Assembly (NCBI RefSeq): GCF_003334255.1
Contig: NZ_QOWU01000174.1
DNA: 1,103 bases
Strand: one strand, 5' to 3'
Source: Escherichia coli
GTDB taxonomy: Bacteria; Pseudomonadota; Gammaproteobacteria; Enterobacterales; Enterobacteriaceae
The notes below the pieces were generated by a model. The model ran no database searches, had not been told where the DNA came from, and saw only the letters and a program-made list of their open reading frames with translations. Positions 3-1,103 of this stretch are shown here, piece after piece; the first letter of the stretch is position 1; every line of letters begins with the position of its first letter. Position numbers and translations under genes: made by a program.

Positions 3-27
3 GTAAGCGTACAGCCTGAACCGTCTG
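3..27 (+). repeat. Putative left terminal inverted repeat (IRL) of the IS66-family element; inner boundary approximate
   Basis: Begins GTAAGCGTACAGCCTGAACCGTCTG. IS66-family termini characteristically start 5'-GTAA. The matching right IR is outside the window, so the length cannot be confirmed. Confidence 0.5.
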
Positions 28-73
28 GTCAGAATCTGACGAATTAGACAAAGTGGTGTCCACCAAATAAGTA
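28..73 (+). promoter_or_regulatory. Leader / putative promoter-operator region upstream of tnpA
   Basis: Holds two short palindromes: GTCAG-aat-CTGAC at 28..40 and TGGTG-tc-CACCA at 54..65. CTGACG at 35..40 is a weak -35-like hexamer. I found no convincing -10 hexamer, so promoter placement is uncertain. Confidence 0.3.
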
Positions 74-475
74 GTGGGAACCAAAGTGTCAGATATGCAG
101 AAAAATGTGACTCCCGGCAGGCGAAAAGGCTGCCCTAATTATCCTCCCGAATTTAAACAGCAGCTCGTTGCTGCCTCCTGTGAACCCGGGATATCCATCT
201 CAAAACTTGCTCTTGAAAATGGCATTAACGCCAATCTGTTGTTCAAATGGCGACAACAATGGCGCGAGGGAAAGCTGCTATTACCTTCTTCAGAGAGCCC
301 CCAGCTACTTCCTGTGACTCTCGATGCAACTGCCGAACAGCCAGAATCGCTCGCAGAGGACCCGGAAACCCTCAGTATCAGCTGTGAGGTAACGTTCCGG
401 CACGGGACGCTCCGCTTCAATGGCAATGTCAGCGAAAAGCTCCTGACTCTGCTGATACAGGAACTGAAGCGATGA
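74..475 (+). CDS. tnpA: IS66-family OrfA/TnpA, small helix-turn-helix accessory protein (133 aa from the GTG at 74; true start may be GTG 86 or ATG 95)
   Basis: ORF 74..475 in frame 2. The segment ISKLALENGINANLLFKWRQQW looks like an HTH, and the C-terminus is leucine-rich (KLLTLLIQELKR). It is first in the operon and its TGA stop overlaps the tnpB ATG. GGGA at 77..80 lies 5 nt upstream of the in-frame GTG at 86, a plausible Shine-Dalgarno; the in-frame ATG at 95 is another candidate. Confidence 0.85.
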   Translation: MGTKVSDMQKNVTPGRRKGCPNYPPEFKQQLVAASCEPGISISKLALENGINANLLFKWRQQWREGKLLLPSSESPQLLPVTLDATAEQPESLAEDPETLSISCEVTFRHGTLRFNGNVSEKLLTLLIQELKR

Positions 476-819
476 TCCCGTTACCTTCCGGGACCAAAAT
501 TTGGCTGGTTGCCGGTATCACCGATATGAGAAATGGCTTCAACGGCCTGGCTGCGAAAGTACAGACGGCGCTGGAAGACGATCCCATGTCCGGCCATGTT
601 TTCATTTTCCGGGGCCGCAGCGGCAGTCAGGGTAAACTGCTGTGGTCCACCGGTGACGGGCTGTGCCTCCTGACCAAACGGCTGGAGCGTGGGCGCTTCG
701 CCTGGCCGTCAGCCCGTGATGGCAAAGTGTTCCTTACACAGGCGCAGCTGGCGATGCTGCTGGAAGGTATCGACTGGCGACAGCCTAAGCGGCTGCTGAC
801 CTCCCTGACCATGCTGTAA
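472..819 (+). CDS. tnpB: IS66-family OrfB/TnpB accessory protein (115 aa)
   Basis: ORF 472..819 in frame 1: MIPLPSGTKIWLVAGITDMRNGFNGLAAKV...RQPKRLLTSLTML. Size and sequence match my recollection of IS66 Orf2/TnpB. The ATG at 472 overlaps the tnpA TGA at 473..475. AGGA at 459..462 is a plausible RBS 9 nt upstream. Stop is TAA at 817..819. This protein is unrelated to the IS200/IS605 TnpB nuclease. Confidence 0.9.
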   Translation: MIPLPSGTKIWLVAGITDMRNGFNGLAAKVQTALEDDPMSGHVFIFRGRSGSQGKLLWSTGDGLCLLTKRLERGRFAWPSARDGKVFLTQAQLAMLLEGIDWRQPKRLLTSLTML

Positions 820-844: not shown

Positions 845-870
845 ATAAGCCCGGTAAAATACGGGCTTAT
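845..870 (+). promoter_or_regulatory. Perfect stem-loop (9-bp stem, 8-nt loop) overlapping the tnpC start codon
   Basis: ATAAGCCCG at 845..853 pairs with CGGGCTTAT at 862..870; the loop is GTAAAATA at 854..861. The 3' arm includes the A and T of the tnpC ATG (869..871) and the only SD-like GGG (863..865). No U-tract follows, so it is not a typical intrinsic terminator. Confidence 0.55.
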
Positions 871-1103
871 GAACGACATCTCTTCTGACGACATCCTCCT
901 GCTGAAACAGCGCCTGGCCGAACAGGAAGCGCTGATCCACGCCCTGCAGGAAAAGCTGAGCAACCGGGAGCGCGAAATAGACCATCTGCAGGCGCAGCTG
1001 GATAAACTCCGCCGGATGAACTTCGGCAGTCGTTCCGAAAAAGTCTCCCGCCGTATCGCACAAATGGAAGCCGATCTGAACCGGCTTCAGAAAGAGAGCG
1101 ATA
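869..1103 (+). CDS. tnpC: IS66-family transposase OrfC/TnpC, N-terminal fragment (5' partial; runs off the window)
   Basis: Open frame from ATG 869 to the window end with no stop: MNDISSDDILLLKQRLAEQEALIHALQEKLSNREREIDHLQAQLDKLRRMNFGSRSEKVSRRIAQMEADLNRLQKESD. Hydrophobic residues recur at 3-4 spacing (I9, L12, L16, I23, L26, L30, I37, L40, L44, L47), suggesting a coiled coil. It is absent from the ORF track only because it has no stop within the window. Confidence 0.85.
   Translation, partial: MNDISSDDILLLKQRLAEQEALIHALQEKLSNREREIDHLQAQLDKLRRMNFGSRSEKVSRRIAQMEADLNRLQKESD

Follow-up and report, generated by a model that had tools for sequence, protein, structure and literature searches.

In the insertion sequences (IS) IS10 and IS50, read-through transcripts contain a stretch complementary to the RBS (ribosome-binding site), fold, and hide the start of the transposase gene, while the native promoter is located between the two arms, so that the native mRNA escapes the fold. 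A stem-loop is also formed in IS200 tnpA within its 5′ untranslated region (5′UTR), where the inverted repeat of the left end sequesters the Shine-Dalgarno (SD) sequence, inhibits 30S binding, and keeps transposase levels low (PMC4513863). ISPpu9 is a further IS for which control of transposase expression by secondary structure in the mRNA 5′UTR is reported (PMC8450116). Here, we analyzed a stretch of 1,103 nucleotides of Escherichia coli DNA (assembly GCF_003334255.1, contig NZ_QOWU01000174.1; referred to as the window), which is the left end of an ISEc8-like IS of the IS66 family, with respect to the start codon and the leader of its first gene, tnpA. Unless stated otherwise, the features of the window lie on the plus strand, and L numbers denote individual loci.

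The element resembles IS66, IS679, and ISEc8 in that its terminal inverted repeats begin with GTAAGCG, its genes are arranged as tnpA-tnpB-tnpC with an ATGA overlap, its TnpA carries a helix-turn-helix (HTH) domain, and its TnpB corresponds to PF05717/NF033819. It differs from what is described for this family by a conserved hairpin in the tnpA leader (47..90); neither such a leader hairpin nor a mapped tnpA start was found described for IS66 elements in the literature searched. With respect to the IS end and the start codon, the hairpin occupies a similar place to that of IS200. However, IS200 belongs to an unrelated IS family with an unrelated sequence and has a near-consensus SD, a mapped transcript, the antisense small RNA (sRNA) art200, and control by Hfq, whereas the SD-like motif of the window element is weak and its start codon is itself paired in the predicted fold. 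As in IS10 and IS50, the two arms would fold on a read-through transcript, and ribosomes entering from outside would also be halted by an in-frame stop codon in the loop (68-70); in contrast to these elements, where the native promoter lies between the arms, none was detected in positions 1-300 of the window. ISPpu9 differs in belonging to another IS family and in the involvement of two sRNAs.

We propose, with moderate confidence, that the main tnpA start of the window is the GTG at 86..88, which would yield a protein of 129 amino acids beginning with MSD. The hairpin probably keeps tnpA translation low, and both GTG 86 and the ATG at 95 may be used. We infer the codon that ribosomes actually use, as well as the action of the hairpin on the mRNA, from sequence features, conservation, covariation, and predicted folding.

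Candidate Start Codons of tnpA

The tnpA frame contains TAA at 68-70, GTG at 74-76, GTG at 86-88, ATG at 95-97, and a further GTG at 107, and the open reading frame (ORF) from 74 to 475 encodes 133 amino acids. The three start codons considered in the initial annotation (GTG 74, GTG 86, ATG 95) do exist in this frame, and the product from ATG 95 indeed reads MQKNVTPGRRKG. Pairing with the anti-Shine-Dalgarno sequence ACCUCCUUA was scored over positions −18 to −4 of each candidate. GTG 74 yielded +0.9 kcal/mol, in agreement with the earlier statement that it lacks a recognizable SD, while GTG 86 reached a weak −4.2 kcal/mol and ATG 95 −3.3 kcal/mol, the latter from the same GGGA at a distance of 15 nucleotides. 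This GGGA, the only SD-like element near any of the three candidates, is located at 76..79 in the 3′ arm of the hairpin and shares the last G of GTG 74. The initial annotation correctly recognized a GGGA ahead of GTG 86 but placed it at 77..80, where the sequence is GGAA; its spacing of 5 nucleotides applies to GGAA, whereas GTG 86 follows GGGA after 6 nucleotides.

In RefSeq, the window DNA is annotated from ATG 95 (WP_001171554.1, 126 amino acids) in the full copy L001 and also in O157:H7, while the gene of a second full copy, L002, is annotated from GTG 74 (WP_032300200.1, 133 amino acids), with L001 and L002 being identical over 60-115. The protein collection that was searched also contains many products of 129 amino acids, for which GTG 86 is the start. 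The 133-residue form of TnpA matches NF047595 with 96.9 bits (cut-off 74) from residue 21 onward, and PF01527 (HTH_Tnp_1) covers its residues 23-88. Since each of the three candidate starts lies well ahead of the HTH domain, the function of the protein is unlikely to depend on which of them is used.

The tnpA Start in Related Elements

The relatives compared comprised close elements from Klebsiella, Enterobacter, Salmonella, and Serratia with 71-90% nucleotide identity and distant left ends from Aeromonas (L014, L054) and Noviherbaspirillum (L098), whose TnpA is 30-40% identical. The distant set further included 12 metagenomic or genomic loci retrieved by a cluster-representative search, Janthinobacterium L238, and Enterobacter bugandensis L240. 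Among the close relatives, positions 46-97 of the window are nearly invariant and vary less than the downstream coding sequence. Relatives with at most 57% protein identity resemble TnpA only from residue 16-17 of the 133-residue form onward, so that protein alignment alone cannot place the start.

At the nucleotide level, the codon equivalent to position 86 is ATG, GTG, or TTG in all 21 relatives that were aligned or inspected. It is ATG in Serratia L007, L183, L224, and L231, and, one base later, in Aeromonas L014/L054; GTG in the window, Klebsiella, Salmonella, Noviherbaspirillum L098, L225, L226, and L227; and TTG in L219, L220, L221, L223, L228, L229, L230, and L238. In the distant lineages, this codon is located three bases after GGGAACC, and the motif GTAGTGGGAACCAAA is kept even where the identity of TnpA falls to 30-40%. 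The N-terminus MSD, encoded by ATG or GTG followed by TCA GAT, is common to the window and the distant element L017. Where the residue at this position would be Leu, the codon is TTG in 8 of 8 cases (p ∼8e-6 given each gene’s own codon usage), and where it would be Val, it is GTG in all 5 cases tested (p ∼1e-2, likewise), although these values are not independent of the structure described below, because NUG at 86 pairs with a conserved CA.

In three lineages, the 86-equivalent is the sole possible start. The sequence of L231 has TAA in the loop followed by ATA GCG GGA ACT ACT ATG, with no start codon before that ATG; in L219, the stretch from the upstream stop to the TTG lacks any ATG, GTG, or TTG, as does that from the TTG to the conserved motif; and in Aeromonas an in-frame TAG immediately precedes the ATG, while the equivalent of GTG 74 is in another frame. 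Noviherbaspirillum and L220 likewise have no downstream start codon before the conserved RKG...EFK motif. The Serratia element carries ATG at the 86-equivalent and ATA at the 95-equivalent, and the Prokaryotic Genome Annotation Pipeline (PGAP) starts its gene at the former; L183, with 78% protein identity, has ATG at both positions. The earlier suggestion that TnpA may be 4 to 7 residues shorter than 133 amino acids agrees with this comparison, which narrows the choice to GTG 86.

A long TnpA of ∼200-225 amino acids, matching model NF038385, was seen in L011, L012, L013, L015, and L239, where an N-terminal extension of ∼70-90 residues precedes the region homologous to the TnpA of the window.

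A Conserved Hairpin in the tnpA Leader

The leader hairpin (47..90) has a minimum free energy of −15.7 kcal/mol and a z-score of −3.59. Its inner stem pairs 54-63 with 74-83 (GUGGGAACCA), its outer stem pairs GACA (47-50) with UGUC (87-90), and the loop spans ∼64-73. GTG 74 is fully paired with CAC at 61-63, and the predicted structure buries this codon as well as GGGA and most of GTG 86, of which U87-G88 are in the outer stem. GTG 86 begins 3 nucleotides after the 3′ arm of the inner stem, and the outer helix involves the UG of this codon together with the initial bases of codon 2. The Serratia, Aeromonas, and Noviherbaspirillum elements form a perfect stem (GGTTCCCAC/GTGGGAACC), and when folded individually these sequences and the window show z-scores from −3.4 to −5.5.

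To follow the pairing across the family, a model of 19 pairs (47-65 with 72-90) was tested on a MAFFT alignment of 19 leaders that had not been fitted to the structure. Paired bases were found in 77.3% of the alignment cells, vs. 32-44% when the partner was slid by 1-3 columns, and 9 pairs and 24 cells were altered on both sides. In 500 shuffles, neither the paired fraction nor the covariation score nor the number of doubly changed cells of the real alignment was ever attained. In 18 of the 19 sequences, the start codon’s UG is bound by the CA of CAAAG, and the outermost pairs, formed by the bases upstream of CAAAG with the first two bases of codon 2, covary (GC/UA, CG/AU). Both the inner and the outer helix were independently recovered by RNAalifold.

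A hairpin was also predicted in leaders that cannot be aligned to these (L009/L010, L016, L017, L018, and L240). It ends 0-5 nucleotides before a unique ATG, and its 3′ arm holds GGA or GGAG, which in these other subfamilies lies 8-10 nucleotides before the ATG. The predicted folds of the L009 and L016 leaders do not surpass those of shuffled sequence (z ∼ −1). L009-type alleles with GGATAG/CTATCC and GAATAG/CTATTC are mutually compensatory. In total, the same predicted arrangement, with the SD element and/or the start codon inside a stem-loop, was found in 24 leaders.

The specificity of the motif was assessed with ∼1 Mb of unrelated DNA as a negative control, consisting of chance matches to the 15-mer GTAGTGGGAACYAAA from an exact-pattern contig scan. 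Among the matches to this 15-mer listed, only L022, L023, L054, L091, L092, L098, L129, and L136 are IS66 ends. A covariance model of the hairpin matched IS66 left ends only and nothing else in the ∼1 Mb of unrelated DNA. The compensatory changes, together with the presence of non-homologous hairpins at the equivalent place of other subfamilies, argue that the hairpin is maintained by selection.

Other roles and identities were considered for the palindrome. The right end of the element does not carry the hairpin motif, which rules out a transposase site common to both ends, and an intrinsic terminator was ruled out as well, since no U-run follows the stem. An Rfam search of the window returned no relevant family match for the hairpin; its only hit at E ≤ 1, isrJ at 472-537 on the minus strand (20.7 bits, E = 0.39; gathering score 37), lies off the hairpin and was taken as a chance match.

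Several further features of the leader were noted. The stem of the ISEc8 clade contains a G58.A79 mismatch and a U59.G78 wobble and is thus not perfect; its 5′ arm GGTGTCCAC would pair perfectly with GTGGACACC, and its 3′ arm corresponds to the type GGTTCCCAC found in Serratia, Aeromonas, and Noviherbaspirillum. An allele in L184, T59C, restores a C:G pair. CAAAGTG occurs as a direct repeat on either side of the inner stem (49-55 and 82-88). The upstream CAAAGT is conserved in most lineages and, in those starting with TTG, pairs with ACTTTG or CTTTG containing the start codon. In-frame stop codons are present in the loop of many independent lineages, namely TAA in the window (68..70), L221, L225, L229, L231, and L240, TGA in L220, and TAG in Aeromonas L014; closing the tnpA frame at this place may halt ribosomes that read in from flanking genes. 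Relics of the left end, in which the left terminal inverted repeat (IRL) and the hairpin are kept and tnpA is lost soon after the start region, were found in L008 (601-690), L091, and L092 (2117-2220); that of L008 is broken near the equivalent of position 92, close to ISKpn26.

The hairpin also bears on GTG 74 (74..76). This codon is the first start-capable one after the TAA and opens both the ORF track and WP_032300200.1 (133 amino acids); on this reading, VGTK(V/L) would be a conserved N-terminus, as (V/M)(G/D)T(K/I/T)(V/L) recurs in gene calls from many distant relatives and the equivalent codon is ATG in L224, L226, and L238. However, besides lacking an SD (+0.9 kcal/mol) and being fully paired in the inner stem, GTG 74 is replaced by GCG in L219, L230, and L231. 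In L219, this GCG comes with a compensating change in the opposite arm, giving G:C for A:U. In Aeromonas the equivalent is out of frame behind TAG, and in Janthinobacterium L238 PGAP skips an ATG at this position and calls the TTG at the 86-equivalent. Moreover, the protein similarity to distant relatives starts only downstream, at residue 16-17 as given above. We therefore judge GTG 74 not to be the start and regard initiation there as highly improbable. According to the initial annotation, conservation of the residues encoded at 74..94 among orthologs would have supported GTG 74. On the surface such conservation exists, as the peptide VGTK(V/L) is frequent in distant gene calls; it does not rescue GTG 74, because it is conservation of nucleotides, with the codon being GCG or out of frame elsewhere. 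The bases at 74-85 are conserved because they form the 3′ arm of the hairpin, and gene callers are drawn to GTG 74 because the stem by coincidence reads GTG in this frame.

The G88A Allele and the Downstream ATG

A frequent allele of ISEc8, G88A, has GTA instead of GTG at position 86. This O157:H7-type allele was seen in L139, L140, L184, L232, and others, and an exact match of 56 nucleotides to it was found in 797 E. coli records and at 13 places in one O157:H7 chromosome; the GTG-86 allele is exact in 2895 records. A search for related loci on viral contigs, which yielded chiefly near-identical copies of ISEc8 and of the ISEc8-57% type, supplied allele variants. The G88A variant is annotated from ATG 95 by PGAP. 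With the exchange, the C49:G88 pair is lost, and the ribosome site at ATG 95 is predicted to open at a cost of 5.8 instead of 10.5 kcal/mol. In 2001, Han and colleagues reportedly found that IS679 requires each of its three ORFs to transpose. Since the G88A element has multiplied, its TnpA, if required, must come from another codon, for which ATG 95 is the obvious candidate; judging from its sequence, ATG 95 is the only start left in this variant and must serve as such.

ATG 95 (95..97, 126 amino acids) is a downstream alternative confined to the ISEc8 clade. It is present in all examined relatives with at least 78% protein identity; the Serratia element has ATA at this position. On a read-through transcript, the predicted opening cost of the ribosome site is 14.4 kcal/mol for position 86, 13.3 kcal/mol for 74, and 10.5 kcal/mol for 95, and these energies alone do not discriminate between 86 and 95.

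A number of observations weigh against GTG 86 as the main start and against the proposed action of the hairpin. Given the spread of G88A, GTG 86 is dispensable once ATG 95 exists; its opening cost is the highest of the three candidates; and GUG is a weaker initiator than AUG. NUG at 86 also pairs with the conserved CA of CAAAG, which confounds the argument from its invariance. In the stem, G.U and A.C cells are about as frequent (25 vs. 23), so the pairing pattern is neutral between a fold of the sense RNA and a palindrome in the DNA. A promoter scan found no sigma-70-like promoter in positions 1-300 of the window, and native transcripts may not contain the 5′ arm. Finally, no experimental data on the initiation site of IS66 tnpA were found in the literature searched. 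A promoter picked by eye, with TAGACA (45-50) and TAAGTA (68-73) separated by 17 nucleotides, was dropped, as its −10 box matches the consensus at only 2 of 6 positions.

The first of these points could be taken to mean that ATG 95 is the working start in this element, as in the commonest RefSeq annotation, and that GTG 86 is an ancestral relic kept only as part of the outer helix. Besides the proliferation of the GTA-86 variant and the stronger initiator codon, such a start is in line with the location of ATG 95 outside the hairpin in an A-rich stretch, where the predicted opening energy is the lowest of the three candidates and falls further in G88A, and with its conservation among the closer relatives. 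However, ATG 95 has no SD at a workable distance, the sole GGGA being 15 nucleotides upstream, and the Serratia element with ATA at this codon has ATG at 86. An equivalent codon is missing from Noviherbaspirillum, L220, L219, and others, and family-wide the start directly follows the hairpin. We therefore consider this alternative possible but rather doubtful.

The remaining points leave room for the inverted repeat at 47-90 to act as double-stranded DNA, either as an operator for TnpA or as a site at the left end for the transposase or a host factor. The paired changes would then reflect symmetric half-sites, and any start codon would fit. The HTH_Tnp_1 domain of TnpA is consistent with such a site, as are the lack of enrichment of G.U over A.C cells, the conservation in sequence of parts of the loop and flanks (CAAAGT, CCAAATA), and the promoter scan of 1-300, which detected none. 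An operator, however, would require neither that the 3′ arm ends 0-5 nucleotides before the start in every subfamily and holds SD-like purines, nor that the outer helix pairs the start codon and covaries with codon 2. The arms, at up to 17-19 base pairs, are long for a repressor site, and a symmetric transposase site is at odds with a right end that lacks the motif. A role as a DNA site is thus unlikely in our view.

Returning to GTG 86 as the proposed initiation codon, the hairpin would act on transcripts that contain both arms by occluding the RBS, so that little TnpA would be made, and the ATGA overlap would pass this low rate on to tnpB. The stop codon in the loop (68-70) would block ribosomes entering from outside the element. 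GTG 74 would be start-capable only since the stem needs GUG opposite CAC, while ATG 95 would be a later acquisition of the ISEc8 clade that serves as a second start or a clade-specific back-up.

Organization of the Element

In the window, the IRL (3..24) begins with GTAAGCG and was identified by its pairing with the right end in the full copy L001, in which the terminal inverted repeats (2503-2524 with 4923-4944, 22 nucleotides, 86% complementary) bound an element of 2442 base pairs. The sequence GTAAGCG...CCGTCTGG at the left end is kept in relatives. As proposed here, the coding sequence of tnpA, which encodes the HTH_Tnp_1 accessory protein, comprises 129 codons and TGA (86..475). It is followed by tnpB (472..819; NF033819 IS66_TnpB, 115.4 bits, cut-off 50), whose ATG overlaps the tnpA stop as ATGA at 472-475, a layout expected for translational coupling. 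The 5′ part of tnpC, which encodes the IS66 family transposase and is annotated from the equivalent of 869 in L001 and L002, extends from 869 to the edge of the window (869..1103). In the window and the full copies, gene order, inverted repeats, and family-model matches are all those of an IS66 element. Thousands of complete E. coli genomes contain DNA with at least 99% identity to the window, in which tnpA, tnpB, and a tnpC named “ISEc8 family” by PGAP are annotated.

As the window comprises the left end only, the 8-bp target-site duplications of IS66 elements were looked for in the two full copies L001 and L002. The flanking 8-mers are unlike in both, being AACAAATG and GGTAAAAG in L001 (2495-2502/4945-4952) and TATCATTA and AGCGATAG in L002 (2493-2500/4943-4950). 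Both copies adjoin truncated genes, which suggests later rearrangement.

Between tnpB and tnpC, a perfect hairpin of 9 base pairs with a loop of 8 nucleotides (ATAAGCCCG/CGGGCUUAU) was observed at 845-870. The region 820-890 folds with −20.1 kcal/mol (z −3.26), and the 3′ arm overlaps the tnpC ATG at 869-871. Relatives with 82-93% identity show strong conservation of the intergenic sequence but only partial conservation of the pairing.

Discussion

The ambiguity of the tnpA start is in itself an ordinary annotation matter. Its consequence is that the same, very common protein of an E. coli mobile element is deposited with 133, 129, or 126 amino acids for identical DNA, and the comparison with relatives provides a reasoned choice, GTG 86. 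The hairpin found across the IS66 family is a modest new observation, as the type of mechanism that it suggests is already known.

On a wider reading, the hairpin would be a family-wide cis-regulatory RNA of IS66 elements that gates tnpA-tnpB(-tnpC) and is opened or closed by a trans-acting factor (such as TnpA itself, Hfq, or an antisense RNA) or depending on which transcription start is used. The starts at 86 and 95 would then give two TnpA isoforms or expression levels, and the O157:H7 allele G88A would be de-repressed and more active. We consider this full scheme speculative and quite unlikely to hold as a whole. Irrespective of it, G88A, in which GTG 86 is gone and the predicted opening cost at ATG 95 is about halved, offers a natural allele for testing altered activity.

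If the leader hairpin does hide the RBS of tnpA, it would represent a first control point of transposition in the IS66 family that can be tested directly.

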